Source: a virus
Lineage: Duplodnaviria; Caudoviricetes
Direction: 5' to 3' (one strand)
Virus record (IMG/VR): IMGVR_UViG_3300028833_000101
Span: 1-64,000 of that record
DNA: 64,000 bases
This document shows, one piece after another, positions 1 to 46,200 of this stretch (position 1 is the first letter of the stretch; each line of letters starts with the position of its first letter). A model generated the notes under the pieces. The model was not told where the DNA came from, made no database searches, and saw nothing but the letters and a program-made list of their open reading frames with translations. The translations under genes were made by a program, and so were the position numbers.

Positions 1-444
1 GGTATTTTAACACAGGGCAAACTTACTAATATTGCTAATGGTTATTATGTATATTGGATTGGTGGAGAATTTACTAATCCAGGAAAAACTCAACCAAAAT
101 TACATGTTAAACCTCAATATGGTAAAACACCATTAAAAGTTGATTTTGGTAGCGGCCAAGGATATAATGACTGTATTTTATACTTTGCCTCAGAGCAAGC
201 TGCAAAAAACTTTATGGGTATTGCTGATGCAAAGAAACCAAGCAAAGTTAAATCTCTACAAATTAAAAAAATTGGTGAAGATAAAAATGGTTATGTAGAA
301 GTTTCTACTGAATTTGGTAATGCATATATTAAAGCTTCTAAACTCCATGAAGAAGTTGAAGAAGATTTAGAAAATAAAGAAGAAAAAACATATAATTATA
401 AAGAAGTAGCCGAAGCTTATTTTGATGGCTTCTTTAAAGATTAA
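1..444 (+). CDS. 5'-truncated hypothetical protein, paralog of the 9867 and 10746 N-terminal domains
   Basis: Frame 1 is open from base 1 to TAA at 444. Shares YFASEQAAKNF and VEVSTEFGNAY motifs with YFATEQEARNF/VLVQTDCGPAY (9867 gene) and LFKTINEAKMF/VQVNTMCGKAY (10746 gene). Confidence 0.75.
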   Translation, partial: GILTQGKLTNIANGYYVYWIGGEFTNPGKTQPKLHVKPQYGKTPLKVDFGSGQGYNDCILYFASEQAAKNFMGIADAKKPSKVKSLQIKKIGEDKNGYVEVSTEFGNAYIKASKLHEEVEEDLENKEEKTYNYKEVAEAYFDGFFKD

Positions 445-455
445 GGAGAAATAAA

Positions 456-1943
456 ATGAAGATTAAGAAATTAGTTGAATCCAAATTAATTGAAGCTGAA
501 GATAAGATTGATGCTACAGGTTCAGTTCAAGAAATTGCTGATGATATTCAAGACCAAGTTGATGATTTAACTAACGGTGAACTTGAAATTTCTGATGAAG
601 CGGCTAAAAAAGCTGCCGAAGATACTTCTGTTGTTGCGGATGTTGTAAATGCAGATGAAGCAGTTATTGTTATCGATGACAATGACTGGAGTGATGTTAA
701 AATTACAAATAGACTTTATAGAACACTAGATAGAGCTTTTGCTGCTGCCAGCACAAATATGGGCAAGCACAAGATTAAAGCTGGTGCTAACGTTCTTGTT
801 GAAGGTCTTCCAGGTTCAGGTAAAACTGCTATTGTTGAAGCTTGGTGTAAAATGAATGGCTTAACGCTTGTTGCCTTAAATGCTACTGACCCAAAGATTG
901 AGTCTGCTATTAATGGTATTCCACTTCGTAATATGTCTGTTGAAGATTCTACAGAACTTACATATGCATATGCAGTTGATGATAAAAATTTAGGCTTGTT
1001 AATCAATGAAAAACATCCAGAATTAGCAGGAAAATGTGTTTTATTCGTCGATGAATTAAACAGACAAAAAACAGAACAATTGAGACGTCCATTTATGTCT
1101 CTCTTTAATGAAAAAAGAAATGCAAGTGGCACGCTAGATTTTTCTAAAAACTTATTGTTCTGTGTTGTTGCTATTAACCCATTTGGTAATGACTTCCATG
1201 ATAAAGGCGTTAGTGAATTAAATGCTGCTGAAAAAGACAGATTTGCCCGCCAACAATACAGCTTTGACTCAAACATTGATGACGCTCTTCAATTCTGGAA
1301 TTGGTACAGATCAAAAGAATTATTAGAGTTAGGCATTATTTCTCCTGGAAGTGCTGCCTCTGCAAATCATGGTGGTTGGGTTGGACCAACAAAAGAATTA
1401 GATGAAGACGATTTAATGCACGCTAAGAGAGTTCTCAAAGGTGCTGCATTAGCTCTTTATATTTTAAATAATGTTCAAAAATCAAGAGAAACTGAAGTAT
1501 TTACTACAAGAAGAGATACTGATAAAGCTTATAGAAGTGGTGATTACCGCTATACTACAAGCAGAGGCTTATTTGATGGTATTTTTGATAGCACATTTGG
1601 TGATGATAAATCACCTGTTAAAGACTTCTTAGACTGGGTTGATGAAGAAAGCCATTATACTCCAGAAAAAGTTAGAATGTTCCATGACATTTTAGATTCT
1701 TATGTTATGGACGTTAAGGGATTATTTGCTGCTTATAATCTTGATAAAACTCCAAAAGAAATTAAAGCAGAGTTAGATGGAACTGCTGCTCCAAAAGCTG
1801 ATACTACTGTTGATAGCACTGACGATGAAATTGAGGATGATGATGTCATGTTTGGTGCTGATGATATTAGTGGAGTTAGCAAAGCAAGCACAGACGATTT
1901 AAGCAAAGACGATGTTGATTCTATCATGGGTAGCTGGTTATAA
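456..1943 (+). CDS. MoxR-like AAA+ ATPase (AAA_5 type), 495 aa
   Basis: Walker A GLPGSGKT, Walker B LFVDELNR, sensor AINP, Arg finger AEKDRF; RBS AAGGAG; followed by peptidase and vWA genes. Confidence 0.85.
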   Translation: MKIKKLVESKLIEAEDKIDATGSVQEIADDIQDQVDDLTNGELEISDEAAKKAAEDTSVVADVVNADEAVIVIDDNDWSDVKITNRLYRTLDRAFAAASTNMGKHKIKAGANVLVEGLPGSGKTAIVEAWCKMNGLTLVALNATDPKIESAINGIPLRNMSVEDSTELTYAYAVDDKNLGLLINEKHPELAGKCVLFVDELNRQKTEQLRRPFMSLFNEKRNASGTLDFSKNLLFCVVAINPFGNDFHDKGVSELNAAEKDRFARQQYSFDSNIDDALQFWNWYRSKELLELGIISPGSAASANHGGWVGPTKELDEDDLMHAKRVLKGAALALYILNNVQKSRETEVFTTRRDTDKAYRSGDYRYTTSRGLFDGIFDSTFGDDKSPVKDFLDWVDEESHYTPEKVRMFHDILDSYVMDVKGLFAAYNLDKTPKEIKAELDGTAAPKADTTVDSTDDEIEDDDVMFGADDISGVSKASTDDLSKDDVDSIMGSWL

Positions 1944-1946
1944 TCT

Positions 1947-3095
1947 ATGAAAATTCTAAAAGAAGCAGGAAAAGAAATACAAACTGATACTGAAAAAAGG
2001 CTAAAAAAGAAACTTTTAGCCCTTTTGCGTAATGATGGAAAAGGCCATCATCATGCTAAGTATGCAGCAAGATTAGAAGATTTTATTTTAAAAATCGTTC
2101 CAAGATCAGAGGAACCTGGTTTTGTTGCAGCAGTTAGCTGGGAAGATATTACTGTTTATATTAGTGATGGTTTTGTTACTAATGACCCAGATATTTTCTA
2201 TCAGTTAAGTGTTTTAATGCGCCATGAATTAGCTCATTATTTATTACAACATGATATTAGAATGGCTAAGTATATCGCAGATAAATATGGTGATGAATAT
2301 GCTAAGCATTTTAAATTAAGTAACTTACTACATCAAACCTGCAATATTGTTATGGACTTAGAAATTTCTAACCAAGTTTATATGCAAGATGATGATAAGG
2401 ATGTAGTTAGAAATCTTACTGATGGTGTTAGATTTTTGCCTGGTTTAGTTACAGACGATATCGAAGCAAAATGAACAAAAATGACACTTATTGAAATGTA
2501 TGATGCAGTTGAAAAAGAAATAGATAGCATTAAGCAAAGTATTATAGCTAAATGGGATGCTTTAGATATGTCTAAGCTTGTAAATCCATTTGATAAAAAA
2601 TCATTTATTAAAAATCATATTATAAATGAATTAAATGTATATACAGATACAAAACACCCAACTAATTTCTTTGGCACTTTAGCTCAATTTATTAAGGGTA
2701 GAGCACTATACCATTTTGCTCCATTTGACACACAAAATAGTATTTGTATGATTAAATATTCATCTCTTCCAGACTTGTACCAAGATATCATCGTAGATAT
2801 TGCAGAAGAGTTTAATAGACAAAATGGCTATACAAGACAGGAAATTCGTGATAAAGTAACTGAAATTGCTAAAACAAGCCCAGTCGAGACTTATATCCTA
2901 AAGGGCAAAAATGGCAATGAAGTTACTAAGATATATAATCCAGAAGAAAAATTCCTTGCAATTGATGCATTAAAAGCAGTTCTTCCAGAATTAGATGAAT
3001 ATGATGCTTGGTATGCAAAGGTTCAAAAGGTTTTCTCTGATAGTAAGTACACTGACGCCGATAGACAAAAAGTCTTGGATGCGCTTAATAAATAA
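1947..3095 (+). CDS. HExxH zinc metallopeptidase-like protein (DUF2201 N-terminal type), 382 aa, one internal TGA=Trp
   Basis: MRHELAHYLLQH followed by CNIVMDLEISN. ORFs 1947..2474 and 2481..3095 join in frame through TGA at 2472. Confidence 0.75.
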
Positions 3096-3106
3096 GGAGG
3101 CGTCAA

Positions 3107-5320
3107 ATGAAATCAATTAGAGTAAAATCGTATAATAAATTAATAGAAAACATTATTACTGAAGATAGCATTAAATTAGACGGTAATACAAGTGATTTTA
3201 AAGGAAAATTAAAAAAACGTATTACTGATGCAATTAGACTTGCAAAAGAATGTAGAATTGCTGCTAAAAAAGCAAGAGATGCTGGTAATGATGAAGATGC
3301 TGATTGGTTAGAAAAACGTGCAGAAGATTATGAAACCGCTGCTAGAAATTGAAACCAAGATGCTCTTGATGCTGAAGAAGATTCATCAACTGACAGCAAA
3401 CAAGATGATACTAATAAAGAACCAAGCCAATCAGAAGTAGCACAAGATGCTGCGAATGCTGCTAAGCGTGCTGCAAGAGATGCACAAGATGCTGCTAATG
3501 AAGCTCAAAAAGCAGCAGAAAAATTAGCTGATGCTGGACAAGATGCAAGTGCTGCTAAAGCTGCTGCAGATAAAGCTCAAGAAAAAGCTAATGAAGCTAA
3601 ACAAGCCGCACAAGAAGCACAAGAACATGCAGATGAAGCAAGTAAGGCAGAAGCTGCTGGAGATAAAGATAAAGCTAAGGCAGAAGCTCAAGCTGCAGAA
3701 GATGCTCAAAAGAAAGCAGAGCAAGCCGCAAGTGAAGCAGGTAAAGCTGCTGAATCTGTAAATCAAAAGACCGCTTCTGAAAGAGCACAAGATGCTGCTG
3801 ATGCTGCTGAAGAAGCTGCTAAAAATGCTCAAGCAAAAGCTGATGCTGCCCAAAAGAAAGCTGATGACTTAAAGGCCGAAGGTAAGGATGCCAGTGAGGC
3901 TCAAGCTGAAGCGGATAAAGCAAAAGAAAAAGCAGAACAAGCTAAGAAAGCTGCTGAAGAGGCTAAAGACCATGCAGAAAAAGCTGAAAAAGCTGAAAAA
4001 TCTGGTGATACAGATACAGCTAATTCTGAAGCGGATAAAGCAGAAGCTGCTGCTGAAAGTGCTAAACAATCTGCAAGTAGCTCATCAGATAGCAGTGAAA
4101 GTAGCTCTGATAGTTCAGAGGACAGCTCTGACTCTGATAGTGACTCTGATAGCGACTCTGATAGTGATAGTTCTTCAAAATCTAAATCCAAAGGAAAAAG
4201 TAATTCAAGTAGTAAATCAGATGATAAATCTGATGCAAGTGAATCTGAGGGAGATTCTGATGATGATTCAGATGATGAAAGCCAATCTGATGATGCTCCA
4301 ATTAAAGACCCATTTGCAGATGAAGAAGATATTCCAAGTATGCCAAGTATGGGGCAACAAGGACAAGAACCAAGAGACCCAACTGTGGATGAAATTATTA
4401 AACAATTAGGTAAACTTGAAGGTGAAGCAAAACGTGGAGCTATTGCAGGTTTAACTGATTTAATAAATAAAAATAAAAATGAAAGTTTAACTGAAGCTTT
4501 TAGTAAAGGTATTCGTGAGTTCTCTGATGAAGAATGGGACGACCTAAACGATGAAACTATTGATAGAATCAATAAGGTTAAAAAAATTACCACCATTGAT
4601 GATGTTGAAGGAAGAAAAGCAAAGGTTAAAAGTTGAGCAGATAATCAAGCTGCTCGTCAAGAGCTCTCTGACGAAGAAAGCCAAAATGCTCAACACGATG
4701 TATTACAACGCCGTGCCAAAGAACAAGAATTAGATAAATATAATAACTTGTCTGGAATAAAAGACTTTGAAATTGACTTTGAAGGCTGCATAAGAGACCA
4801 AGTTGAAATGGTCATGCAAGATTATCTAACATATGATGAAATTAATCCAGAATATGAATTAGAAGATGTTATTATGAAAGCAGAAGTTCAAAGAATGATC
4901 CCAGATGAAGCTATTCCTACAATTGCTGTGTTCTTTGATAAATCTGGTTCATGCTCTAGGGCTATTCCAACACTTAACAATGCTATTGCAACAGTTAAAC
5001 AAAAATATGTTGATACTGGCATGTGTAAATTGGATTTATATTATTTTGGTGATAGAGTAGCTTATAATGATATTAATGCTCGTGTAGGTGGCTCTACAAT
5101 GGCTTGGCCACACATTATTGAAACTATTAGACGTGGTGATTATAACAATGTTATTGTTATGTCTGATGATGATATTGGAAGCCAAAATAATAATGGTGAA
5201 AGTTATACTGTTACTGGCTGCGTGTGGTGGCTATGAGTTAATGGCAATAGAGCCCCAAAATGCGTAAAAGAATTACGTGGTATGCAACATAACTTTGAAT
5301 GCGAAATTAGCGCATATTAA
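3107..5320 (+). CDS. vWA (MIDAS) domain protein with long Ala/Lys/Glu coiled-coil and Ser/Asp linker, 737 aa
   Basis: One frame through TGAs at 3350, 4634 and 5234 to TAA 5318-5320. MIDAS FFDKSGSC ... GGST ... VMSDDD; RBS AAGGAGG. Confidence 0.8.
4075..4300 (+). repeat. Ser/Asp low-complexity tract (DSDSDSDSDSDS) inside the vWA gene
   Basis: Tandem gac/gat-tct/agt codons, e.g. gactctgatagtgactctgatagcgactctgatagt at about 4130-4170. Confidence 0.8.
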
Positions 5321-5332
5321 GGAGATAAATTT

Positions 5333-6001
5333 ATGGAAATTATGAAAGAAGAAAAATTAGCTGAAGCAAAATTAACAGAATCAAAAGAAAAGTTACCAAT
5401 TTCTTTCTTAACAGATTTTGTTAGTAGAGGCTGGGATGATGTTGGTTATCTAAAAGAAACAATCAAATCAATCAAAGAAACTTTCAGTGGAACTAAAAAA
5501 GTTGAAGATTTGCTCCAAGCTTTAGTTGACGCTTATTTAGTTTGTATTGGTCAATTAGAATTACATCTTCAAGACAAAGATTATTTAGATACTGATTTAA
5601 AAGAATCTGTAGATATTCATGTTGAGGGTAATGAAGTTACAATTGCAGATAATTCCGGTGAAGATGTTGCTATTATCCCAGTTGAACCAGAAGCTGAACA
5701 ACCATGTGAAGGATCAGATTGTAATGTCCCACCAGTAGTTAGCCCAGTTGAGCCTATTGAGGTTCCTGCTGAGGTTCCTGCTGAAATTCCTGCAGATGGT
5801 GAGCCATTTGAAAATGCTTTTGAATTTGATGCACCAGAAGCTGAAGGCGTTAAAAAATTCGAAAAACCAGAAGTTGCTGATTTCTTTGTGGACTTTGATG
5901 ATCCAGTTGGTGAACCTGTCACTGAAAAAGAATTATACGGTGAGGGAGAAGAGCCAATCGAAGGCGAAAAGATTGATGCTGACGTTGAAGAAGAGGAATA
6001 A
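5333..6001 (+). CDS. Acidic hypothetical protein, probable capsid-internal protein, 222 aa
   Basis: RBS AAGGAG; N-terminus KLAEAKLTES; Pro/Glu-rich C-terminal half. Confidence 0.7.
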   Translation: MEIMKEEKLAEAKLTESKEKLPISFLTDFVSRGWDDVGYLKETIKSIKETFSGTKKVEDLLQALVDAYLVCIGQLELHLQDKDYLDTDLKESVDIHVEGNEVTIADNSGEDVAIIPVEPEAEQPCEGSDCNVPPVVSPVEPIEVPAEVPAEIPADGEPFENAFEFDAPEAEGVKKFEKPEVADFFVDFDDPVGEPVTEKELYGEGEEPIEGEKIDADVEEEE

Positions 6002-6020
6002 TTAATAATTTATTATTAAA

Positions 6021-6050
6021 AGAGCGCTTTAAATAAGCGCTTTTTTATTT
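6021..6050 (+). terminator. Intrinsic terminator
   Basis: agcgctt-taaat-aagcgct stem-loop followed by T tract. Confidence 0.8.
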
Positions 6051-6162: not shown

Positions 6163-9100
6163 ATGGCAAAAAAGATTGAAATTAATGAAAATTGGGAACC
6201 AGTTGAAGTAGAAGATTTAGATAATCTATTTATTGTTGTCTTTAAACACGGCAGTTTTGACCAAGGTTATGTTGAAGCTTTTGATACAGACGATGTTTTA
6301 ATGCAATCTGCTTATGACAGCTTAGCAAATCAATATAATGACTGTGGCTGCGATGAACTAACAAAAATCTATTTAATTAAAGTTCCAAATACTGAACAAA
6401 CAGTCAATATGTGTAATACGGGATTATTTAATGGTAATTGCTGCGACCCTCATGTCATTGAAGCAACCAAAGATTTATTCAATAGAGCTGACTGTGAACA
6501 TCTTTCTTGCTGGGAAGGCTGCGGTTTAACTGAGGCTAAAAAGAAGAAAAAACCATATTCTTCTGCTTATTGTGGTTTCACTGATCCTGAATTAAATATC
6601 AAACACTTTAATAAATGTATGGGCACTGATGGTCTCCAAAATCCAGATGCATCACATTTAATCGTTGGCGATACTTTACCAAATGCACCAGTTGCTGATG
6701 CTGGAAGTTCCGATGGAGCAAGTGATGCAAGTAGTTCTGCTGGAGAAGGCGGAGCTATGGGTGAAAGTTTAACTGAAGCCAACGAAGAAAGTTTAGAAGA
6801 TAAAATTAGGGCTGTCATTGCTCATAAAGAAACAGATGATTGGCACGATGGAAAAGCTTATCTTTTTGAAGTTAGTGATGAGTCTAAAAATTCTGATAAT
6901 GGTGATATTGATCCATTTTGAGTTGAAAAATTTGATGATGATGAAGTTGACTTCAGTAAATTAAAAGTATATGATAGAACTCCAGAAGAAAAAGAAGATG
7001 GCAAATATATTGCTACTTTTATGATTTCTGGCGGTAAAAATGGCTCTGGTGAATGGACTGATTATTTAAGTCAATTAGCAGATGCTTTCAAAGCAATTAA
7101 AGAGAAAACAGGTGCTGAACCTTTACTTTATAAATTAGATACAGATATTTGTGATGATGTTTGGACTGGTTATGTTTTCTTATATGATCATGCAGATAAT
7201 GTTAAAGAAAGCTTAAATGAAGATTTAATTGTTGTTGAACCATTTGAAGCCGAAGAAAAAATTGAGGAAATTAAGAAACAAATTGAAGAAGCTAAAGATT
7301 GAAAAGTCCGCAAAAACCTATTAACTTTAATGAATATTTATTTATTCCAAACAGTTTATGATGCTGATCATCAAGATGAGACTGATTGCAATATCAATAA
7401 AGAAGAATGAGATGAATACTCTAAATGGAGTACTGAACAAGGCGAAAAACTTTTAAATGAACATCCAGAGCTTGAAAAAGAAAATGAAGAAAGAGAAGCT
7501 AAAATTGATGCTTCTGTAAAAGATGATGCTTCCGATGAAACCGAAGAACAAGAAGAAATAGAAGAAAATTTGACTGAAGCCCATTTAGATTATTCTACAC
7601 AATTATCTAAAATGAGACAATTAGAAGCAGGCACTCGTGGCTTTAATGCTTCAAATGTTAGCTTAGAAAAACTTCTATTTAATTACGATATTTGTATTTC
7701 TCATAATTTACCAAAAGCTAGAAAAGTAATGGAAGATGCTTTAAGAATGCACGGTTGGGACCAATATATTAAACCAACTAAAAAACAAGTCAAAATTTCA
7801 GACTATGATCGTATTTTAAAACCTGGTTATGTAAACATTGCTGCGGCTAAAACTGTTTTGGCAAATAAAGATAATGCACAACAACTTATTAAAGACTATG
7901 GAAACAACTTAGATGATTTACTTGTTATTTTAGTTATTGCACTTGGAATTAAAGAAGCTGCTTTAGCTGGAACTATTAAAGATCATATTATCAATAACTT
8001 CACAGTTACACTAGCTGAGTTAAAAGATTTCTTAAATAGATACTTTGCTAATCCAGCTGCTATATCATCTTTAAATCAAATTATTCACGATTGTAAAGAA
8101 AGTTTAGTAGAAGATGCTGGCTATTCTCATAAACTTGAAGATAAATTTGAGCTTCCTCCACAAATTAAATTATTAGACCAAAATAAAGTTGAAGATTTTA
8201 TTAAACAATTAGCACCAGAAGAATTATTTAGAGTTGGTTATGCTACTCCATTATATTTCTATTCTGAATTAGATGATAAATTTGATTTAGTTAAAGCTAC
8301 TGAAATGGAAGGCTATACTGGTTTAGATTATCGTGATGCCTCTGTCGATGCCGCAGACCACGATGAAAGAGTTGCTAATGCACAAAGACAAATTGATACA
8401 TATAAAGATGGGGCTTATGGGCATAAATTAAATACAGAAGGTGAAAAATTTAGTACTAACTATAGAGCAACTAATAAACTTGCATTAAACCCTGAAAAAT
8501 CTAATGAATATGTTGAATATGAATTAGATGCAGAAGGAAAACCAGTAAAAGATGCTGCTGGCAAACCAATTATTAAAACTAAAATAGATATGAATAAAAT
8601 TTTATTCTATCCAAGAGTTGGTTCTACTCCTATTACTCATTATTATATTGATTTCCATAATGGTCAAGGATTTAGACCAATTAGACGTGAAGTTTTAGTT
8701 GATACTTTATATAAATTTATCATGGAAGTTGAGAAAGCTAATGCTATGGGTGTTAGCAAAACCGATCTAATGTGAATACAAAAGAAAGGTTATGGCAATA
8801 TTAAGAAAGACTCTACTGGTGCAATTGAAGCATTCTATAAAGACCACCCAGAAAAATATGCAATTAGTATTTATAGAAAAGCAGAAGAATTAGGCATTCC
8901 TGCTGAAGAATATGCAAAAGAACATCCATTTAGCACACGTTGGTCTATGAGCGACTTTAGAAAGAAAGCCAAATCAATGTTTGATGCTGACGCTGCTACT
9001 ATTATGGCCCAAGATGCCTCAACAGTTAGTGATCAAGAGTTAGCCGCTACAAAAGGTGTTAATAGAACTGTAACAGGAATTGAGAATAAACCGCAAGTTA

Positions 9101-9597
9101 GAGCTTTATATTCCAACCAAGTTTATTGGCTTGATGGAAAACCAGGAAAGCTTGGTGCTCAACTTAAAGAGGGATTAGAAGAAAATATTGAACTTGATGA
9201 AGCAAAGCGTTATGTTAAACGTTATTATGTTAGACCTCTAAATATTTTCTGTGGAAATAAAGAAGATATTATTCAAGCTTTAATTAGAGCTGGAGATCAA
9301 AACTGCTCTGTCTATTCATTAAAGAATTTAACAAACCATGAAGATGTTCACTTATTACAACCAAGTGATATCATCTATTACTGAGATGACCATGTTTTAT
9401 ATGATAAGAATCATGTTCAAGTTATGGACTATGATTTATTTGTTAAACATGAAGAAGACCGTAAAAAAGTTGGTAACATTGATGCTGTTCCAGATGCAAC
9501 ATTTAGCGATATATATGACGATAGAGCTACAGAAGACGATTTAAAAGATAAAGATGTAATTGCTAACTATAAAGCATTAAATAAAATTACTAGATAA
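6163..9597 (+). CDS. 1144-aa multi-domain protein with domains separated by E-S/N-L-x-E linkers (candidate processed internal-head polyprotein)
   Basis: Track ORFs 6163, 7021, 7570 and 8947 share one frame, are joined only by TGA codons and end at TAA 9595-9597; RBS AAGGAG. Confidence 0.75.
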
Positions 9598-9866: not shown

Positions 9867-10745
9867 ATGGCTTTACCAGATAATTATGATATAAGAGAAT
9901 ATTTGCCAAAAGAAGAAGATTTTGCGGCTGTTTTTGCTGCAAAGCAAAATGGTAATTATTATAATTTACCATACTATCCTCTTGGTAAAGATGAACCATA
10001 TTGTTACCCAACTGTTAGAATTTACTTGGCTGCTATCTTGCTAAAATGAGAAGAGCTTGGAAAACTAGTTGAAAAATACTTGCTTGACGGCAAATATATG
10101 TATATTAGTGGTGTTAGACAACTAGTGCCTTATTATACTCCACAAGACTTAGCAATTATTAGATCATTTGCAGTTAAGTATAAACAATATTACATCAGCG
10201 GTTATATGAAATATAAAGATGCTGGACAAGGACTTGAATCTCCTGAAAAGCTTAGACAAGCAGCAAGAGATGCTAGAAAAGGTGAAATTGAGACAAAAAT
10301 AAAGGGAACTGGTAATTTAATTCGCCTTATTCCTTATAGTATGAAATATGGCGATGATGACCCAAATAAAAGACAAGCTGGTGCTAAAATGCACTTATTC
10401 TTTGGTAAAGATGTTGGGGGTAAATATAGTATAGTAGTTAGAGGCAGCAATTTATATGGTGCTGGAAAAAATGCTATTGATGATGCTCCATATTTTGCAA
10501 CAGAACAAGAAGCTAGAAATTTTATTACAAATGTAGATCATAACCATATTAATACAAAAGTTACAATTGAAGACTGACGATATGTAATTACTGATAAACC
10601 TATAGATAATGGCTACATCAGAAATGAAGCTGGAGATTATGTTAAAGATTGATATTCTCCAAAAATTGATGACGCTGTATTAGTTCAAACTGATTGTGGA
10701 CCAGCATATATGCTAAAAGATTGTGAATTATTAACGGGGAAATAA
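9867..10745 (+). CDS. Hypothetical protein, paralog of the 10746 N-terminal domain, 292 aa
   Basis: Read through TGAs to TAA 10743-10745. N-terminus YDIREYLPKEEDF...LLKW parallels FDIKNCIPTEEDF...LLKW of the next gene. Confidence 0.75.
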
Positions 10746-13076
10746 ATGGCTGGATTTGATATCAAAAACTGTATTCCAACTGAAGAAGACTTTAGAGAAG
10801 TAGCTGAAGCAAAAGTCACTAATGATAAGAGCAGAGCTCTTGGTGGTTTTTCTTGTTTAGATGATGCTAATGCTCCTTATTATTATTTATTAGTTCGCAG
10901 ATTTTTTGCTTGTATGCTTTTAAAATGAACTGAGGCAGCAAAAGCCTGTGAAAGCCTATTAATTAATACAAAAGATAGCACTTATGATGCTGCTGCAATT
11001 AAACAACTTATTTCTTTAGTACAAGCAAATAAAGCTGATTTTATTGATAATTATAATAAATATAAAGGCTCGCAGGAAATTCAAGCACCAACTGTAACTT
11101 TTGGTAAAAAGAAAAATCATGAAATTACGCCAGCCGATCAAATAAGTTCTCGTGCTGGTGAAGTAAAAGTAATTACTCATGGTAAAACAAAAGATTTTTA
11201 TCGAATTGTTGCTTATGATATGCGCTATGGTGGTAGTGGAGCTAGACGCGGTTTAGTGTTTGGTAAAAAAGATGGCAACTTATATACTATTAAAATTCTT
11301 GGAAGCGACCAAATGACTGGCCTTCGTTTATATGATTCAGTATTATTTAAAACAATAAATGAAGCTAAAATGTTTATTGCAAATATTAATCACAGTAATA
11401 TAAATACTTCTTATGAAATTGATAGCCTTAGATATTGTATTTCAGATGAACCAATTAATACACAACATTATAATTGACAAACTCGTAGCTATGAAAATGT
11501 TGAAATTAATAGTCTAGATGAGGCAGTTCAAGTAAATACTATGTGCGGAAAGGCTTATATATTAAAAAAGAGTGAACAATGTAAAGAATCTTTGGAGATA
11601 GATAATATGAATGAAGCGATTGAAAAACATGATACACTAAATCCAAAATTATTCGAAAACAATTCTTTAAAGCCAGAAATTAGAAAAAAGGCTGAAGAAG
11701 TTGTTAATGAATTTTTGAGAATTTTAGCTGAAGATGAAGTTAGATTAGATGTTAGAGATGTTATTTTAACAGGCTCAAATGCAAGCTATAATTACACAGC
11801 TGACAGTGATGTTGATTTACATATCTTAGCTAATACAACTCAATTTGACGACCCAGAACAACTTCATAAAAAACTTTATAATTGTTATCGCAGAATTTTT
11901 GAAAGCAAATTTGATATTAGTTTCTACGGAATTCCAGTAGAAGTTTATGTTGAAACTGAAGATAACCCAGTTGTTAGTAATGGTATTTATTCTGTCATGT
12001 ATGACAAATGGGTAAAAGAACCAACTAAAGATTATGTTAAAGAAGTTGATCAAGAAGAAATTGCAAAATTTGCTAAACCATGAATTGCTAGAGCAAATGA
12101 AGTAATTAAAAAAGTTGATGATAACATGCCAGATGGTGAAGAAGAAATTGATAAATATTTAGAAGATATTTATGAAATGAGGCAACAAGGTATTTATAAT
12201 ACTGATGGCAGTGAATTCTCATCAGAAAATCTTGCATTTAAAGAAGTTAGAAATGCTGGTTTATTAGATAAATTAAAAGAGCTTAAAAATAAAGTTATTG
12301 AAAAACGTTTGTCTTTAGAAGAGGGCATTAAATACTTAGACGATGATCACGAATTTAAAGATTATGGAACTAGTGAAGCACATGAAACAGATGTAATTGA
12401 TATTCATAAAGCTAGCACATTCTCAACACAAGATTTATTAGATGGTTCAGTAGACGCTGCTTATGATGGCGTTGTATACGATATCGTTGAAATGACACCA
12501 ACCCAATACTTTGAATTATGCTCTAAAATTCAAGGCATGAAACCAGATGAAATTATCGATTTTATTGGTGCTGATGAAAGACAAATCACACATATTAAAG
12601 ATGTTATTCTAAAATATGGTAAGAAACTTCCACTTCCATATGTTAGCTTCAGTGACAATGCTGAAGTTAGTGGCCAAGAAGGCAGACACAGAATGTATGC
12701 TCTTGGTGAAATGTTTGGTTGGGATGAGGATTTCCCAGTAATGCTTATCCAAGATGCAAGCTCTAAGAAAACTCTTGGTGAATTATTGCATGAGTCTATT
12801 ACAGAGGATTTCTATTTAGATGAAAAAACAAGACGTGATTATGTAGTAAAAATTGCACAAATTGCGCATGATCAACCAATTGTTCATCCAAATGGTATAT
12901 TTGAGCTTCACAATATAAGTGAACAAGATGCAAACTTCATAATTCCAAATTTAAGACGTATGCCTTGAATTGAATATGTTTCTAAATCTGGTGGAAGATA
13001 TGATTATAGTAAAATGTCTTATCAAGGTATTCCTGCATTAAAACTTAATATAACTGGAAAAATTAAATTTAACTAA
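10746..13076 (+). CDS. 776-aa fusion: paralog domain + Pol-beta-superfamily nucleotidyltransferase + ParB/Srx-like domain
   Basis: Single frame through TGAs to TAA 13074-13076. NTase motif LTGSNASYNYTADSDVDLHI and PVEVYVE; ParB-like GQEGRHRMYAL. Possible internal start GGAG-N9-ATG at 11607. Confidence 0.75.
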
Positions 13077-19351: not shown

Positions 19352-21154
19352 ATGGACGCTAAAAACAGACAAGTGTTAGAAGCTTTACAAATGCAACCAT
19401 TATCTGAAGAAGAAAAAACCTCCCGTCATATTCTTGGTAGACTTTATGGACCTATTGCGACCTGTAAAGAAAAAACAAGAAATGGTCGTGGCTATAATAA
19501 AGAACTTTGGGAAAGAGCCCTTAGTGATGAAATCTTCAAAGAAAAACTTGCAACTAAAAGTTTATTCTTAGAATTAGGCCACCCAGCTGATAGAGAAGAA
19601 ACAGACATGACTTGTGTTTGTGCCTGTATCCCAGAAATGCCTAAAATTGTCAATGATGATTTATATGCTTATGTTGACATATTAGACACACCAAATGGCA
19701 AATTATTAAAAACACTTTGTGATTATGGCTTTGTTCCTGGTATCTCTTCAAGAGGTTCCGGTGATATTATGGCTAATGATGAAGTTGACCCTGAAACATT
19801 CTTCTTAGAAACATGGGACATCGTTCAACTTCCCGCTGTTAAAAAAGCAAGACTTGCAATGTGTGAAGGTTTTGATGGTAAAAAACCATTAAAAGCAGTA
19901 TTACAAGAAAGTTATGATGCTGCAGATGACAAAGATAAGAATGCCATTAAAGAAGCATTAGACAACTTAGATATTAAATTAACTGAAGATGTTGTTGAAG
20001 ACAATATTCCAGTTGAAGACCCAGAAGCTCCAATTGAAGAAACATTAGTTGAAGCTGAAGAATCTTCAGTAGAAGAAATTCCTGAAGAAGAAGTTGTTGA
20101 AGAACAACCAGCTGAAGATGAACCAAAAGCTGAAGAAGTTGAAGAAGCTCCTGAAGCACTAACAGTTGGTGCATTCGTTGATGAATTAAAAGATTATGAT
20201 AAAGAGCTTTCCTTAGAATGGAAACCAATTATAATTAATGATGTTGAATATCCAGTTGAAGCTGTTGTATTTGATAACAGTGAAGATGGAAAAATTATTG
20301 CTACAGTTAGTTATACTCTTCCTGAAGAAGAGAATACTATAAATGATGAAGAAGTTAGTTCTGATGAAGAACCTGCTACAGAAGAACAAGAAGTTCCTGC
20401 AGAAGAAGCTGGCGATGCCGGAGAAGATGAAGTAATTGAAAGTTTGAAAGAAGCAGTTCGTCAAAAAGACTTACTCGAAAATGAAGTCCGCGATCTTAAA
20501 AATCAAAAGACAGTCAGTGATACCGAAGTACAAGGTTTGAAAGAAGAGCTTGAGAAATACAAGAGCGGTTTCATGAGAGTTAGCGAACTTGCCTCAAAAT
20601 CAACAAAGCTTGAAAAAGAGAATCAATCTCTTACAGAGCAATTAAATCTTAAAGATACTGAAATCAAAGATTTAAAGGAAAAAGTTGAAAACCACAACAG
20701 TTTAACAGAAAGTATTAATGCTGATAAAGCAAAAGTTCAAGAGTTATCTGAAAAATTAGTTAAGGTTCAAGCCGAAGCTGAAGAAACAGAGAAATCCTTA
20801 AACGAAGCGCTTACAGAAAGTAGAAAGAAAGCTGCTGACAGAGCAAATCTTGCAAAGTCATACAAAGCTAAATATGATGCTGTTATTGAACGCTACCTTG
20901 CCAATAAAGCAAAAATGCTTGGTGTTAGACCATCAGATATTACTAGCAAACTTGCCGAAAGCTATTCGCTAGACGATATCGACAATGTTTGCAATGATCT
21001 TCTTGATGAAGGTCGCCCACAATTCGGTTTGGTTGGTGGTAATCCAAGAGTAAGAGTCAATGAGTCAGTCAGTAAAACTGAAAAGAAAGTTATTGATCCA
21101 GACAATGGCTACGAAATTGATGATGACTTACTTATCTTAGCCGGATTAAAATAA
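19352..21154 (+). CDS. Prohead protease (T4 gp21-like) fused to an acidic/coiled-coil scaffold region, 600 aa
   Basis: RNGRGY, ELGHP (catalytic His), GISSRGSG (catalytic Ser), WDIVQLPA; C-terminal coiled coil rich in LxE sites and ending ILAGLK. Confidence 0.88.
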   Translation: MDAKNRQVLEALQMQPLSEEEKTSRHILGRLYGPIATCKEKTRNGRGYNKELWERALSDEIFKEKLATKSLFLELGHPADREETDMTCVCACIPEMPKIVNDDLYAYVDILDTPNGKLLKTLCDYGFVPGISSRGSGDIMANDEVDPETFFLETWDIVQLPAVKKARLAMCEGFDGKKPLKAVLQESYDAADDKDKNAIKEALDNLDIKLTEDVVEDNIPVEDPEAPIEETLVEAEESSVEEIPEEEVVEEQPAEDEPKAEEVEEAPEALTVGAFVDELKDYDKELSLEWKPIIINDVEYPVEAVVFDNSEDGKIIATVSYTLPEEENTINDEEVSSDEEPATEEQEVPAEEAGDAGEDEVIESLKEAVRQKDLLENEVRDLKNQKTVSDTEVQGLKEELEKYKSGFMRVSELASKSTKLEKENQSLTEQLNLKDTEIKDLKEKVENHNSLTESINADKAKVQELSEKLVKVQAEAEETEKSLNEALTESRKKAADRANLAKSYKAKYDAVIERYLANKAKMLGVRPSDITSKLAESYSLDDIDNVCNDLLDEGRPQFGLVGGNPRVRVNESVSKTEKKVIDPDNGYEIDDDLLILAGLK

Positions 21155-21191: not shown

Positions 21192-22523
21192 ATGAGACAA
21201 AATTTACTTGAGACTTATAGTCGTCAATTAAAGGTCGCAGAAGCCTACGTTGCCAAAAACTTCGATGGCAAACAAATTTCTGCTAATACACAATTAACAA
21301 CTGCTGTCTTATTAGACAACACAAACAGATGGATGACAGAATCCATGAACACCCAAGCTACAGAACGTTCTGACTTAGGTGATTGGAAAAAATTCTGCTT
21401 AAACCTCACAAACATCGCTGTTCCATCATTAATCGCTAATGATTTAGTCATCGTTCACCCAATGACTTCTTACAGCGGCTCTGTTGCTTACTTACGTTAT
21501 GTTTCTAAAACTGACAAAGGCGACATCCACAAAGGATTCGAATTCAATAGTGTCTTCGGTCTTGGTGAACACAGCGAAGCAAGAACTGCTTTCACTTCCC
21601 AAGTTATCGTTGAAACTGCTGGTTCCGATGGTAAAGTTGCTCTTACCCCAATGGCTACAAACCGTTTCGGTAAAGAAGGCGAACACAAAGATGCTAAAGT
21701 CATCAAAGCTGATGGTTCTATCGAATATGTCACTGCTGAAAAATTAAAAGCTGGCGTTGAAGCTGGTGCTAAAGTTGCTTACTTCAGTGAAGAATTCCAA
21801 ATGGAACGCGTTCCTGCTCAAGACATTCCAACCATTGGTCCAAAAATGGAAAGAATCGCTCTTGTTGCTGAACCAAGACGTATCGCTGTCCGTTACGATC
21901 AAATCACTGCTTTCCAAGCAAAAACTGACTACGGCTTCTCACTCGATAAACAAATCGCTGAACAAGCTTGTGGTGAATTAGCATATGAAATCGACACTGA
22001 AATCGTCGACATGTTATACAAAGCCGCTTTTGCTCACAAAGATGCAGAAGGCAAACCAGTCGTTCTTGAATGGTCCAAGACTCTCCCAATCGGCGTTAGC
22101 AAATTCGAGCACTACAATGGCTTCTTAGAAGTTATTGAACAAGCTAAAGCTGTTATCTATAACAGAACAAAGAAATTCCATCCTAACTACATGGTCATCT
22201 CTGCAGACTGCTTACCAGTCTTAAGATTCGTCAATGGCTTCACAGCTGTTAAGAATGCTAAGATGAATGGACCTTACAAAGTTGGTGAATTAGATGGTTT
22301 ATCAATCTATGTCTCCCCAGCTCTTGAATCAGGTGAATTCTTCCTTGGTTTAAACGGTTCTGACATGATGTCCTCTGCTGGTGTCTACGCACCTTACATG
22401 GCAATTGTCCCAACTCAATTACTTGGAACACCTGACGGTGGTTTAGCACAAGGCTTCTCAACTTGGTATGCTAAAGCATTACTCAACGAGAACCTCTTAG
22501 TCGCTGGCCGTATCGTTGCCTAA
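21192..22523 (+). CDS. Major capsid protein (T4 gp23-like), 443 aa
   Basis: LIANDLVIVHPMTSYSG, ELAYEIDTEI, GVYAPYM motifs; follows protease; distinct high-expression codon bias; strong terminator behind it. Confidence 0.92.
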   Translation: MRQNLLETYSRQLKVAEAYVAKNFDGKQISANTQLTTAVLLDNTNRWMTESMNTQATERSDLGDWKKFCLNLTNIAVPSLIANDLVIVHPMTSYSGSVAYLRYVSKTDKGDIHKGFEFNSVFGLGEHSEARTAFTSQVIVETAGSDGKVALTPMATNRFGKEGEHKDAKVIKADGSIEYVTAEKLKAGVEAGAKVAYFSEEFQMERVPAQDIPTIGPKMERIALVAEPRRIAVRYDQITAFQAKTDYGFSLDKQIAEQACGELAYEIDTEIVDMLYKAAFAHKDAEGKPVVLEWSKTLPIGVSKFEHYNGFLEVIEQAKAVIYNRTKKFHPNYMVISADCLPVLRFVNGFTAVKNAKMNGPYKVGELDGLSIYVSPALESGEFFLGLNGSDMMSSAGVYAPYMAIVPTQLLGTPDGGLAQGFSTWYAKALLNENLLVAGRIVA

Positions 22524-23323: not shown

Positions 23324-25171
23324 ATGCCAAAACTAACTATTATTGTACCTATTTATAACGTAGAAAAATATTTAACAAAATGTCTTTTATCTATTCAAAA
23401 TCAAACATTTAAAGACTTTGAATGCTTAATGATTGATGATTGCTCACCAGATGACAGCTGAAAAATATGTGAACAATTTGAGCAGTCAGATTCAAGATTT
23501 AAATATATTAAAAGACCACAAAATGGCGGTTTAGGTGCCGCAAGAAACACTGGCCTAGATAATGCAACTGGTAAATATATTTCATTTATTGACTCAGATG
23601 ACTCAATACAGCCAAACTTTTGTGAAATATTATTACCTTATGCAGAAAAATATGGCTGAGTTCGTTCTGGACGTCATGGAGTAAATGAAGCTGGCAAAGA
23701 AACTAAAGTTTTTAATATTGAAGAGGGCTTATATACTACAAGTGATAAGCCATTTAAGATTTTAACAGGTGACCGTAAATATGAAATATCTACAGTATGT
23801 AGCTGTATTTATAAAAAAAGTATTATTAAAAAATTACGTTTCGATACCTGTAAATATGGAGAAGATTATATCTTTTCATTAGAGCTTTTTGCTAAATATG
23901 GCCAAGTATATTTTAAAGAAGTTTATTTATATGACTATTTACAAAGACAAGACAGTTTATCTGGAAGTAAAACTGTGAATAAATTTCAAATTTTAACATT
24001 TTTAAATAGTTTTTGCTCTATGCTAAGACGTATTAAAAAAGTTAAAAATTATGATAAACTAAAAGAAATTTATACTAATAATTTTGAAAATCGTGCCTAT
24101 GTAAAAGAACTTTGCCATAATGGTATTGACTTTGTATTTCCATTTGTAGACAGCACCGATCCAGCATGACAAAAGCAATACTTAGCAGCAAAAGGTGAAA
24201 CGCTTACTAATCAAGAGTCAAACGGTATTACTAGATTTAGACCTAATAATTATTTAAAATATTTATTTAGAGGCTTAGAAAAATACCTACCATGGATTAA
24301 TAAAATTCATCTAATTGTTGCAAGTGAAGCCCAAATACCGAGCTGACTAGATAAAAACAAAATTCATATAGTTTTACATGAAGATATTATTCCAGCTGAA
24401 TTATTACCAACATTCAATAGTTCAACTATAGAGTGTTTCTATCATAATATTATTGGATTAAGTGATAGGTTTATTTATGGTAATGATGATATGTTTGCAT
24501 TAAATTATTGTGCAGAAACTGACTTTTTTGATGGATTTACTCCAAAAATAGAAATGCGTAAAATGACAAATGTAAATGGACAAGAAATTTGGCGTAGAAC
24601 TAATATAAATGCTTTTAGGCTTGCAACTGGTTTAGATGAATTAAAAATTGGTTATTATATGGCACCAGAACATGGATTTGCTGCTTATACAAAAGAGCTA
24701 GTTCATAAATTTAATAAACAGCATTATCAAGAATTATATAAGTCATGTACTCAATTTAGAGAACCATATAACATGAATATCTATTTTTATGCTGATTGAC
24801 TTTGGGCAAATAATAAACTCGAAGACTCACCAATTAAATTTAAGTATATTTGAAATAAATGTCCTACTGAACAGATCAAAGAATTTTTTGCATATGCAAG
24901 AGTTGTATGCTTAAATGATACCGACTTAGAGCAAAATCCAGAAACTATTAAACTAATTAATTCTTTATTTGAACAAAAATTTCCAGAAGCAAGCGTTTAT
25001 GAATTAAATACTACAAAAACAAGACTCACACATCCACAACTCTTTAAATTTGCATCCGCAAGAGTTCAAGAGTCTGCATCAAAAAAACAACAGACTAACG
25101 GATCAGCTACCGGGGCTAAAAAAGTAAATTCAGTGTCTGATGGCAAACCTGGCTGTTATTTATACTTCTAG
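23324..25171 (+). CDS. GT2 glycosyltransferase fused to a Stealth-family hexose-1-phosphate transferase, 615 aa
   Basis: GT2: LTIIVPIYNVEKYL, IDDCSPD, GLGAARNTG, FIDSDD. Stealth: CR1 IDFVFPFVDSTDPAW, CR2 LKYLFRG..KYLPW...LPTFNSSTIE...FIYGNDD, CR4 CLND...FPEASVYE. Confidence 0.88.
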
Positions 25172-25182
25172 GAGGTAGATTT

Positions 25183-25965
25183 ATGAAAAAAGTATTTGGC
25201 ATACCAAGCTGACTTCCTGATAAAGAACCAAATAGAACGCAAAGAAAAGAGCGTATTAATAGATTATTTAAGCAGCTCAATGACCTTTGGCCTAACATTG
25301 ATATTTTAGTTATTGCCCAAAATTGGCAAGATTTTAAGCCAATTAAAACAAAAAACAAGCAGATAATAAAAACTTATGAACCACTTGGAATCTTAAAAGC
25401 CAGACAAATGTTAAGAGAAGAATTCCTAAAGCTAGATTATGATTATATAATTATGTTTGATGATGATGCCATTATAAAATGTGATAATGATCATGCTCAT
25501 TTAGATTTTATGAAAGAGGTAGATAAACATCCACAAGGTTTTTGTTTTATTCATGGCAAAAATAGTAAGTATCACCCATATATTGGTGCACAGCTAAATC
25601 TATGTGCAATTTCTAGATTTATTTATGAAAATGAGCCAATGGTCCCAATTGATCCACAAAAGAATGAAGGATATGAGGATAGCATATTTGCCTGTTTATT
25701 ACATCACAAATGAGGTAAATATGAGTTTAATCCGCCTGCAACCATTAGGCCGATACAGTTTCAAAATTATCAAGAAAAAGTTCCATCTACGTGAGCAGAA
25801 GAAAAAAGACCATTTTATAGAATTACCGACAATACAAACAGAATTCAAGAATATATTGTAAGATATAAAGCATTTCCTAGCAACTATAGAGACTTAATTG
25901 TTATAGATAGAAAGCAACCGGAATATATGGCTGATGGCAGGAAAGACTGCTTCTTATACTTTTAA
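25183..25965 (+). CDS. GT-A fold glycosyltransferase-like protein, 260 aa
   Basis: LGILKARQML...YDYIIMFDDD (DxD), GYEDSIF; RBS AGGAGG; ends TAA 25963-25965. Confidence 0.7.
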
Positions 25966-43225: not shown

Positions 43226-46200
43226 ATGATTACAAAAGGTATAATTAAATCTATTGACTTTACAACAAATACCTGTGTTGTTCGTATGCCTTTATTTGAA
43301 AATGCTGGCAATACTACAGAAATGGTTGCCGAAGCTACTTTTGCTATTCAACCAGGAATTTATAATGGATATAGAGAAGGCGATGTTGTTGAACTTGCCT
43401 TTGACAATAATGAACTTGATTCACCAGTTGTTATTGGAAAGTTATTTTTAGGAACAGCTGAAGAAAATAAAGACCAAAGAGGCACTATTAATTGCCAAGA
43501 TTTAACTGTAACTAAAACAGCAACATTACCATTAGATACAAAATTATCATATGGCAGTGAAGATAAATCTATTGCACAAGTTCAAGGTGGTTATAGTTCT
43601 TTTAAAACTCTTGGAAACGTTATCGAAGCAATTCAAGAAACTAATAAACAAATTACTGCACAAGAAATTAAAAATGGTGATTTCATATTAAAAGAGCAAG
43701 ATGCAAGAATGACTGGTCTTGGTTGGCAGGTTGATGAAAACGCCTGAAGAATTCAAGCATATGATAGCACACATACTTTATACCCTATTTTAGACTTATT
43801 TAGAGTAGATAGAAGTGGTGTCACAATTGCAGGAGAATTAAAGCTAGTAGGCTACCCAAAAGAGACAGTTGTAAGATATGCTAGAGTTTTAGCAGATAAT
43901 TATGAACCAGATAGTGAAGGTCACTATAATCCTACATGAGTTAAAGAAAATAATGGTGAATTAATTGCACTTCCACCAGCCTATGGAACAAAAGAAGAAA
44001 TAGATGCTAACTGAACATATTCAGAAAAACCTGCACATAATGATGATTACTATATATTTCAACTTACTTATAATGTTACTTATGTTTATAATAAAGATAA
44101 CGATCAACTAGATGAAACATATATGAGTCAAATCTGAGAGCTTGTTGATTGGCCAGAAGAAGAAACAACAGGAAATGCTCAGCCTGGAACAATAACTAGA
44201 AACCCAAACCATCGTCCTGGTGGTACCTCTGCGGCAAGCAGAGCCTTAGCAATAGCTCGTGGAAAATCAACTTGTTTTTATTCAGATAAAGAACCATATA
44301 AAAACGATATATTACCCGATGAAGATCTATATGTATATCAGCCAGAATTAAGTATTGGTGACACATGATTTAATACTAGTTATAAAGCTGACTCTATACC
44401 AACAAAATTAACTGATTATATTGGAAAATGAATTATGACAGCACCGGCTCCATTTGGCGGTTTTCCAACTTATGCTCAAGTAACACCAGATAATATCAGT
44501 ACACTCTCAATTAACCCCGGAGTTACTCAAGCATACACACATGGCGAATTATATCAATGCAAAGCCATTAATAATGATGGAAAAGCCACTTGGGAGCCAA
44601 TTGGCAGCGAGTTAGTTGCAAATAAAATTACTACTAATTATATTAATGCTTTAGATATTGTTGCTAAAAAAATTGAAATTTTTGATGCAAATAATAATAC
44701 ACTCTTTAAAGCAGATGGTTTAGCTGATGTCCACGAAGTTAAGATTGCTAATTTTACTGTTGCAAATAATAAAATCTACAGCGATAACAAATCATCATTA
44801 GATTCTAATGTTGATGGTGTTTATATTGGCAATGATGGCATTGCACTTGGTAAGGGAAACTTTGTCGTCACAAAAAATGGCCAAGTAACAATTAAAGGCT
44901 ATGTTAAATCTGTGCTAAAAAAATACAGAAAAATTGAGTATGATAACGAAGCTGAAGCAAGCGCACATTATGCTGATTGGAATAACTGGGAATCAGCTGC
45001 TTGAGGCAGTTCTGTCCCACCTAGAGAAGATGAAAAATATATCTGGGAATGAACACAAGAAGAGCAGGGCGATGGAACGCTTGTCGATAAGGGCAAAGTA
45101 TGTGTTACTGGAACAGCTGGTGATTCCGCACACACTCTTAAAATTAGTAATCCATTCGTTGGTGCCCCTTATAGTAGTGATGGAACAACATCTGAATGAA
45201 ATACTACAACTTTTAGATCGAAGACACTTCACAAATTAACAGCATATTATGGTAATTCTCAAATTACTGATACAATAGCTATTAGAACAACTTCACAAGG
45301 ACCAACAAATACTGGATATTCTATTGTTTATTCTGGCAATAGTGTTACAATAACGAGCGGAAAACCAAGTTATAATTCAACTGATAAACTAGTTGAATCT
45401 TCTATTGACAGTCTTAGCGCGGATAATGGTAGTATAGAATATATTTTATACTATAATGCCGCAGTAGTTGCTTATGCAACTTTTGAAGTAGTTAAAAATA
45501 AAGCTGGTGAAAATGCAGTATCTTATTGAATTGTTGCATCTCCAGATACTGTGACAGCAACTGTGAATGAAAGTGGAACAATTACAGCTAAGTCACCTAC
45601 ATCTGTTTCTGTTGAATTCGATAAACAAATTGGAACTGATGCTGCGGCAAAAATAGTAGCTGCAGACAACCTTTATTATACAACAAAATATGATAATGGT
45701 AATGAAAGTTCAAAAACTAAAATTTCTACAAATCCAATCAGTATTAACACAAGTAGTTTTGATAGTAGAGCAATTATTACTATCTATAGCAATAATACAA
45801 CTAGTGCAGTAAAATGTGCATCTAATACTATTCAAGTAATTAAAGATGGTAAACCAGGTGGTAAAGGCGCTGATGGTAATAGCGTTATAGAAAATAAAAC
45901 ATATTATTCTTTAAGTAATACATCATCTTCTACTGGACCAGCTACTGGAGACTCTAATATTGTTGCAACTCCAACAGTAGACAAATGAAGCACTGCCCCT
46001 CAAGCATTTAATAAAGATGTTCATACTGGTTACCAATATTGGACAGTTGAACGCATTGTTTATTCTGATGCCCCTACAGTTGGTGTTTGGGGTACACCAG
46101 TGCTAGCTTCTATGCTAAGTGTTGATTTTATTAATTCGCTTGCAATTCAAGCTAAAAAATTACTTGTTACAGATAGTAGCTCAAATACCCTATTAGATGC

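Follow-up and report, generated by a model that had tools for sequence, protein, structure and literature searches.

The closest described counterpart of the system treated here comes from T4-like jumbo phages of group 2.2, in which a MoxR ATPase is paired with a metallopeptidase-vWA protein and for which a role in virion assembly with peptidolytic processing has been proposed (Iyer et al. 2021, PMC7824862). The Acidianus two-tailed virus (ATV) has a MoxR ATPase, p618, that ranks among the major components of its virion and that binds a vWA protein, p892 (PMC4124505). An AAA ATPase has also been seen by liquid chromatography–mass spectrometry in purified virions of the Staphylococcus jumbo phage vB_SauM-UFV_DC4, a result for which the authors ask for confirmation (PMC10638138), and in bacteria the MoxR-class AAA+ ATPase RavA works with the vWA partner ViaA (PMC3893208). 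Here, we describe three adjacent genes of an IMG/VR virus record (IMGVR_UViG_3300028833_000101) that encode a probable MoxR-class ATPase (456..1943), an HExxH zincin (1947..3095) and a vWA protein (3107..5320), hereafter the trio. They lie, as do all features given below, on the plus strand of the window, by which we mean the whole 64,000-nucleotide stretch that was analysed, the first 64 kb of a single incomplete contig of 104,702 bases. Judged from its sequence, each trio protein seems to bear the signal at which the head protease of this phage would cut, and would probably be loaded into the young capsid. We estimate the probability that the trio is head-internal, as prohead cargo of capsid targeting, at about 0.55.

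In T4, the prohead protease cuts after Glu, and the 'LIE-9' of gp21 fits the protease's own logo; capsid targeting sequences (CTS) are N-terminal propeptides of 10-20 residues, and the propeptide of the capsid protein has 65 residues (PMC9026906, PMC5694885). The enzyme presumed to cut the L-x-E sites in the present phage is a T4 gp21-like prohead protease of family S77, a 600-amino acid (aa) protein with a long C-terminal extension encoded at 19352..21154 (Pfam Peptidase_S77, 42 bits for a cut-off of 27; phrog_207, 7e-31). All three trio proteins start with leaders of the corresponding type. The ATPase leader MKIKKLVESKLIE (456..494) contains two L-x-E motifs and follows the pattern MKIKK-L-x-E-S-x-K-L-x-E; in the alignment of 33 relatives, M1, K2 and K5 are invariant, I3, E8 and E13 are conserved in at least 90%, and the first 35 residues hold at least one [LIM]xE in 33/33 and at least two in 30/33. 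The zincin begins with MKILKE, and the leaders of its family vary in length and end with L-x-E-A, the motif being found at the aligned column in 27 of 30 proteins. The leader of the vWA protein, MKSIRVKSYNKLIENIITE (3107..3163), belongs to a set in which 20 of 24 relatives display [LI]xE at residues 10-17.

The vWA protein holds a further element, ESLTEA (4481..4498), which conservation designates as a candidate prohead-protease site with a cut expected after E463. Residues 459-463 read ESLTE; S460, L461 and E463 are invariant in the family alignment, and E459 and A464 are conserved in at least 90%. At the same position, L-x-E-[AD] is present in 16/16 related loci (these being drawn from 17 IMG/VR loci found with the zincin alignment), and four loci outside the strict ESLxE pattern carry KLQEA, RLTEA or SLTEA. 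The site falls in a stretch of the structural model with a predicted local distance difference test (pLDDT) score below 50. ESLTEA occurs twice in the contig, in the vWA protein and in the neighbouring polyprotein (6163-9597), and the shorter LTEA is found six times in the contig's 32,385 residues for 0.82 expected in shuffles (maximum 4 in 300), with five of the six lying in the genes between 3107 and 9859. The major capsid protein provides a point of reference. By alignment, its MTES (aa 48-51; 21333..21344) is the counterpart of the T4-type gp23 maturation site. Among distinct capsid N-termini of the clade, 25 of 26 exhibit NTNR-[WFY]-[LIM]-T-E-[SA], after which come a segment that differs in length between the proteins and, further on, the conserved body; the T-E aligns with FLTE|A of gp23 from the T4-like phage Moon (the Glu being Moon residue 63 by count). 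ESLTE|A equals this aligned capsid maturation site and is a predicted site in the present phage. Since a substrate of the prohead protease must sit inside the prohead, the trio would be head-internal if these sites are used, and capsid targeting of the trio, which the original prediction had raised, gains true if indirect backing and is a plausible reading of the motifs. Packaging and cleavage are what we infer from them.

The three-gene observation is valid only if TGA is read as tryptophan. All four in-frame stops of the genes are TGA, one in the zincin gene (2472) and three in the vWA gene (3350, 4634 and 5234), and two of the four coincide with invariant-Trp columns of the homologues (W176 of the zincin and W710 of the vWA protein). 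Under genetic code 4, long plus-strand open reading frames (ORFs) tile the entire 64-kb window. With this code, the three genes announced by the original prediction are present where it had placed them, and the N-termini that it quoted, together with ESLTE ahead of the vWA domain, read as it had written them. The genome is that of a large uncultured gut phage with TGA recoded to tryptophan and a T4-type head; the window encodes a myovirus structural module (terminase, portal, protease, capsid, sheath, tube, baseplate and fibres) with gp20- and gp23-type head genes (Portal_T4, 114 bits; Gp23, 108 bits; Pfam). Stop-codon recoding of late phage genes is already in print, with a model in which TGA-containing genes are translatable late only (10.1101/2021.08.26.457843). 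Under that model, the zincin and vWA genes, which contain TGA, would be translated late. As a timing clue, TGA serves these two genes and fails for the ATPase gene, where none of the seven Trp codons is TGA (0/4 in the capsid gene and 0/3 in the protease gene). The use of TGA for tryptophan is patchy in late genes, with 18 of 32 Trp codons in the fibre gene 43226-47791 and nearly none beyond ~77 kb. No tRNA, and hence no suppressor tRNA, was found on the contig.

The 495-aa ATPase consists of the conserved leader (aa 1-13), a variable acidic stretch, an AAA+ core (~aa 85-270), a helical C-terminal part and an acidic tail. It had been announced as an AAA_5-type ATPase; the assignment to AAA+ stands (Pfam AAA, 25.2 bits for a cut-off of 21.2) and the AAA_5 label is a near miss (21.4 bits for 22), AAA_3 being likewise sub-threshold (21.3 bits for 27). 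Across the family, at E up to 0.01, these models match 33/33 (AAA), 22/33 (AAA_3) and 16/33 (AAA_5) members. Walker A (GLPGSGKT), D199 and E200 of Walker B, R203, R210 and R262 are invariant in the 33 aligned proteins, and the top match among PDB sequences is 2r44_A (E 0.0019). Near its C-terminus (window 1830-1940), the protein displays an invariant acidic E-D-D patch (E460, D462) and, after a variable tail, a near-terminal Trp; these may form a docking element or a second processing element.

The 382-aa zincin comprises an N-terminal minigluzincin-like or DUF2201_N-like domain (~aa 13-215) followed by a C-terminal domain with no recognised fold. As predicted initially, it is an HExxH protein. 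HELAH (residues 93-97; 2223..2237) is invariant in 30/30 relatives, and H93, E94, H97, H102, D137 and E139 do not vary among the 30 aligned sequences; 112 metagenomic relatives were found. The AlphaFold2 model reaches a pLDDT of 87.3, and its residues ~13-165 align with VIA-align to abylysin (Z 7.0), jannalysin (Z 6.6) and selecase (Z 5.9), with BlaR1, SprT-type and Ste24 peptidases next in the ranking. These Z values are middling by the tool's own scale, and we therefore base the fold assignment on them taken together with the invariant motif. Other searches gave little: Foldseek of the model against the PDB did not get below E 0.001 (its best row was selecase, 0.045), usable structural matches coming from VIA-align and BFVD only, the family profile found nothing meaningful among PDB sequences (best E 0.2), PHROGs hold no family for the zincin or for the vWA protein, and the Pfam DUF2201_N model does not match the zincin itself and touches 3/30 relatives weakly (best E 0.046). 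About 55 residues ahead of HExxH, aa 31-39 (window 2040-2060) read G-K-G-H-H-H-A-K-Y with H34 and H36 invariant, a stretch that may represent another metal site or, alternatively, an element of the zymogen type.

An invariant metal site, in a protein whose gene is translationally coupled to the ATPase gene and adjoins the vWA gene, invites the idea that the operon's own zincin and not the S77 protease cuts ESLxE and the leaders, which would give a self-contained activation freeing the vWA domain. Minigluzincin relatives are indeed made as zymogens, judging by entry titles. We nevertheless find this scheme quite improbable, as the same motif stands at the aligned capsid site, which a serine protease cuts in T4-type phages (PMC5694885), and as the fused relatives described below retain the zincin yet lack the motif.

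The vWA protein (737 aa) represents a family of 130 metagenomic proteins. Its Ala/Lys/Glu/Asp/Gln-rich stretch (aa 86-320, 3362..4066; A81 K34 E33 D26 Q19) and its Ser/Asp-rich acidic linker (aa 321-400, 4067..4306; 37 Ser and 21 Asp in 80 residues), whose compositions agree with the original prediction, are hypervariable in length with large indels among relatives. The vWA domain (aa 601-737, 4907..5317) was likewise recognised correctly: its last 135 residues are modelled at pLDDT 78-90, VIA-align pairs it with complement factor B/C2, integrin I, von Willebrand factor A, ArnB and BatB domains at Z 8.4-11.3, and all of the best 50 structural matches are vWA domains. A complete metal ion-dependent adhesion site (MIDAS; DxSxS...T...D) starts with DKSGS (4937-4951), and D611, S613, S615, T664, D687 and D689 are invariant in the family. 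Pfam yields no match in 24/24 members. When the zincin and the vWA part were modelled together as a complex, on close homologues, the scores of 0.00, 0.47 and 0.00 for a mark of 0.32 spoke neither for nor against an interaction.

The name 'porphyrin biosynthesis' attached to phrog_249, which matches the ATPase with an E-value of 7e-07, would make the ATPase and its partner a CobS/CobT-like auxiliary metabolic pair for metal chelation. Among the BFVD matches of the vWA model, two bear cobalamin or CobT-like names, and the acidic linker ahead of the vWA domain is reminiscent of CobT/BchD. We hold such a function to be very improbable: the PHROG match is limited to residues 23-149 of the ATPase, the partner is a DUF2201-type peptidase-vWA protein, the genes reside in a head module and no large chelatase subunit is found among the window ORFs scanned, the contig being incomplete.

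As had been suggested from the start, a peptidase-vWA protein of the DUF2201 type is split here, the zincin being one half of it and the vWA domain the other. The statement relies on transitive homology through intermediates and not on a direct Pfam match. Searching 1.84 billion representatives with a zincin-family profile gave 401 matches, and the 150 listed include 13 long relatives of at least 480 aa. All 13 match the profile through their first ~190 residues only (E 1e-25 to 1e-42), and 12 of them also match a hidden Markov model (HMM) of the vWA C-terminal part (E 5.9e-29 to 1.8e-60), their HExxH lying around residues 70-90 and their DxSGS close to the C-terminus. Eleven of these listed proteins reach the Pfam cut-off for DUF2201_N, and three touch PF09967 (VWA-like) below threshold (best 25.6 for 26.4). 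In BFVD, 12 phage proteins are common to the structure lists of the zincin and of the vWA protein (best 50 rows each), several of them named 'VWA-like domain-containing' or 'metallopeptidase domain'. Unlike PF13203 + PF09967 proteins, which are single polypeptides, the two parts are encoded here by two genes separated by a TAA and 11 nt, the second with its own Shine-Dalgarno sequence, and this split architecture is kept in 16/16 related loci. A homologue of the ATPase adjoins the fused peptidase-vWA gene in 22/22 loci, upstream in 20 and downstream in two.

The trio and a fourth gene form one late operon inside the head-morphogenesis block. This fourth gene (5333..6001) encodes an acidic 222-aa protein with the N-terminus MEIMKEEKLAEAKLTES and comes after the vWA gene in 15 of the 16 loci whose DNA extends there; its product has no Pfam or PHROG match, and an Atlas search was uninformative. 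It is followed by a terminator-like hairpin (6017..6047) made of a 13-pair stem and a T run. Intergenic gaps in the operon are 3-12 nt, and strong Shine-Dalgarno sequences precede 456, 3107 and 5333; none precedes 1947, which lies 3 nt past the ATPase stop. The synteny check proposed at the outset shows an order that is kept across the 17 related loci, down to ~28% identity: upstream neighbour, ATPase, zincin, vWA, 222-aa acidic protein, polyprotein, small protein, nucleotidyltransferase-like protein, 453-aa protein, terminase and portal. The ATPase-zincin order is found in 17/17 loci, the vWA gene is directly next in the 16/16 with DNA there (detected by HMM), and the terminase is downstream of the trio in 13 loci, i.e. 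all those extending that far. The fixed place of the trio is thereby upstream of the terminase, portal, S77 protease and gp23-like capsid genes. In these loci as in those of the fused form, the ATPase gene remains beside its vWA partner, in keeping with the MoxR-vWA partnership on which the original prediction was built. The link to head genes is thus firm in this clade and weaker outside it, where only 4 of the 22 fused-form loci have such genes at a distance of up to 8 kb.

Such synteny fits equally well with a trio that is never packaged and acts in the cytoplasm as a late assembly chaperone, working on proheads or virion parts from outside, with the L-x-E elements serving as docking or structural elements. 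The same function has been proposed for the fused pair of the group 2.2 jumbo phages (PMC7824862); moreover, the fused relatives lack the motifs and [LIM]xE is frequent by chance. We view this alternative, the main rival of prohead loading, as possible though less likely. It leaves unexplained why conservation in a loop predicted to be flexible peaks at ESLxE, why this element is identical to the polyprotein linker and to the aligned capsid maturation site, and why leaders of variable length all end with L-x-E-A.

Several observations weigh against prohead loading of the trio. Of the contig's 112 ORFs, 48 have the loose [LIM]xE motif within their first 22 residues, in a proteome rich in Lys, Glu, Ile and Leu, so that its presence in one genome means little; the weight of the signal comes from its conservation across families and from the LTEA enrichment. 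The strict [LI]xE[AS] lies near the N-terminus of 7/112 ORFs, three of them in the four-gene operon, and this enrichment was counted post hoc. Among vWA homologues, the four most distant of 24 lack the N-terminal [LI]xE. The fused relatives begin with M-x-M-T-x-E-E, and among their distinct ORFs examined the one L-x-E-[AS] is at residue 60 of an ORF that is a fragment of 85 aa. The signal is thus no property of the system at large. The leader type of the ATPase does recur even next to fused genes, in 7 or more of 18 distinct ORFs. The alignment of the capsid site with Moon gp23 stands at 25% identity only, and the site argument leans on a cut of T4 gp23 exactly at LTE|A. Since the ATPase gene has no TGA, early translation is still allowed for its product. 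Finally, no cultured relative was found. By tblastn against 50,697 phage records, the zincin and a fused relative gave no hit, and the ATPase matched three Vibrio phages and nothing else, at 28% identity; the MoxR-like gene of Vibrio phage phiKT1024 is located among non-structural genes. The gene adjoining the Vibrio-phage ATPase has no DUF2201 match in Pfam, and no gene annotated as MoxR or vWA lies up to 20 kb from the capsid gene of Bacillus phage HSE3, the closest cultured capsid relative examined.

If the trio is head-internal, the following course of events may be envisaged. The ATPase, the zincin and the vWA protein would be recruited to the prohead core through their L-x-E leaders and trimmed there by the S77 protease. 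A cut at ESLxE would free a vWA fragment of ~274 residues from ~460 residues of charged, scaffold-like sequence. The ATPase ring would supply ATP-driven remodelling, the vWA domain would bind the client via its metal-ion site, and the zincin would cut it. The clients would be head proteins, as we infer. Packaged proteins might also be ejected with the DNA, reassemble in the host and remodel or degrade host complexes such as defence systems, and all the packaging evidence given above would apply to this alternative as well. T4 does eject CTS-loaded Alt and internal proteins (PMC9026906), and the conserved catalytic residues would imply that the mature proteins are active. A hexameric AAA+ ring and its partners would however have to unfold, pass through the tail and reassemble; no result indicates a host target or defence complexes, no search aimed at anti-defence having been made; and both the published reading (PMC7824862) and the ATV precedent (PMC4124505) concern virion assembly. 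We consider an injected machine, the first option of the original prediction, unlikely. Given packaging, our guess of roughly two to one is that the trio acts only in head maturation, the other option named there, rather than leaving with the DNA, a preference due to the proposal for the fused pair and to the ATV precedent.

Other parts of the contig deserve a brief description. The upstream neighbour gene (1..444), of which only the 3' part is present as it is cut by the contig start, ends 12 nt before the ATPase gene and has a homologue at the same place in 16 of 17 related loci; it matches no family. By eye, it may carry a domain related to the one that genes 9867-10745 and 10746-13076 have in common, a paralogous N-terminal domain with ~31% identity in cross-matches. 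Gene 10746-13076 also gives weak nucleotidyltransferase matches and a match to phrog_36119. In the protease gene 19352-21154, the S77 domain (aa 42-144) is followed by an acidic Glu/Pro-rich stretch and, C-terminally, by weak coiled-coil-type Pfam matches. The protease contains eight [LI]xE[AS] motifs (13.3 per 1000 aa), a density equalled only in small proteins of the window, and the product looks like a protease-scaffold fusion. Within the structural module, two glycosyltransferase-like genes (23324-25171 and 25183-25965) separate the capsid gene from the neck genes. The nearest cultured relatives of the capsid protein (21192-22523) belong to Bacillus, Listeria and Streptococcus phages (24-30% identity), a hint that the host is perhaps a member of the Bacillota. 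The matches to the capsid gene are fragmented in one metagenomic relative (L087:1601-4405), and in Bacillus phage SP-15 (KT624200.1, 25518-27987) the capsid gene is annotated as two parts flanking an endonuclease, which suggests that mobile insertions occur in capsid genes of this phage group.

That these three domains occur together, probably in connection with virion assembly, was already known. The papers found in searches for packaged or head-targeted phage MoxR proteins do not describe the split form, the extended charged region at the N-terminus of the vWA protein, the constant position within the head module or the conserved protease-type signals. If the trio enters the prohead, the cargo known for T4-type capsid targeting, so far Alt and small internal proteins, would come to include a chaperone that depends on energy, along with its adaptor and another protease, and the widespread and unexplained phage pair of MoxR and peptidase-vWA proteins would gain a concrete site of action. 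Should capsid targeting load the full remodelling set of MoxR ATPase, vWA adaptor and zincin, and this set leave with the DNA to work in the newly infected cell, for which we see only a slim chance, no AAA+ chaperone-protease machine delivered by the virion would have been known in a bacteriophage before it. If the trio is unpackaged, it is one more case, of modest interest, of an assembly chaperone pair already proposed in print. Besides, nature has dissected the DUF2201 architecture in the split form, so that the roles of peptidase and vWA domain can be tested separately, and the invariant ESLxE site offers a simple biochemical read-out.

Compared with the systems described so far, the trio shares features with each and coincides with none. 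RavA-ViaA is cellular and has neither a peptidase nor a virion context. The p618/p892 couple of ATV is also a viral MoxR-vWA pair tied to virion morphogenesis, and ATV ORF892 is a structural match of our vWA model (E 1.5e-4); it belongs however to an archaeal spindle virus, has no peptidase, prohead protease or leader motifs, and its role is in extracellular tail growth. In phage DC4, the acidic AAA ATPase UFVDC4_00011 (516 aa, discussed as MoxR-like) adjoins the 'metallopeptidase' UFVDC4_00012 (643 aa) (PMC10638138), a tentative parallel in gene layout and description; DC4 is a member of another phage group, of the virion RNA polymerase type. The fused pair of the group 2.2 jumbo phages comes closer, with the same three domains, adjacent genes and head genes of the gp20/gp21/gp23 type (PMC7824862). 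In contrast to that pair, the peptidase and the vWA domain are here encoded separately, a further C-terminal domain is present in the zincin, the vWA protein is longer by ~460 N-terminal residues and has an ESLxE site, all three proteins bear conserved L-x-E leaders, and the operon is fixed upstream of the terminase, with a similarity to cultured phages that is nil or marginal.

The parallel with T4 concerns the processing of head cargo by CTS and gp21. No T4 cargo is known to be an AAA+ ATPase, a zincin or a vWA protein, and the leaders of the trio have no sequence homology to those of T4. In both cases, short N-terminal propeptides, putative ones in the trio, end with L/I-x-E, and in T4 an S77 protease cuts after the Glu in IPI-III, Alt, gp24 and gp23; the T4 CTS can moreover carry unrelated proteins into the head (PMC9026906, PMC5694885). 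Homologues of the S77 protease, gp23 and gp20 are all present in the phage described here.

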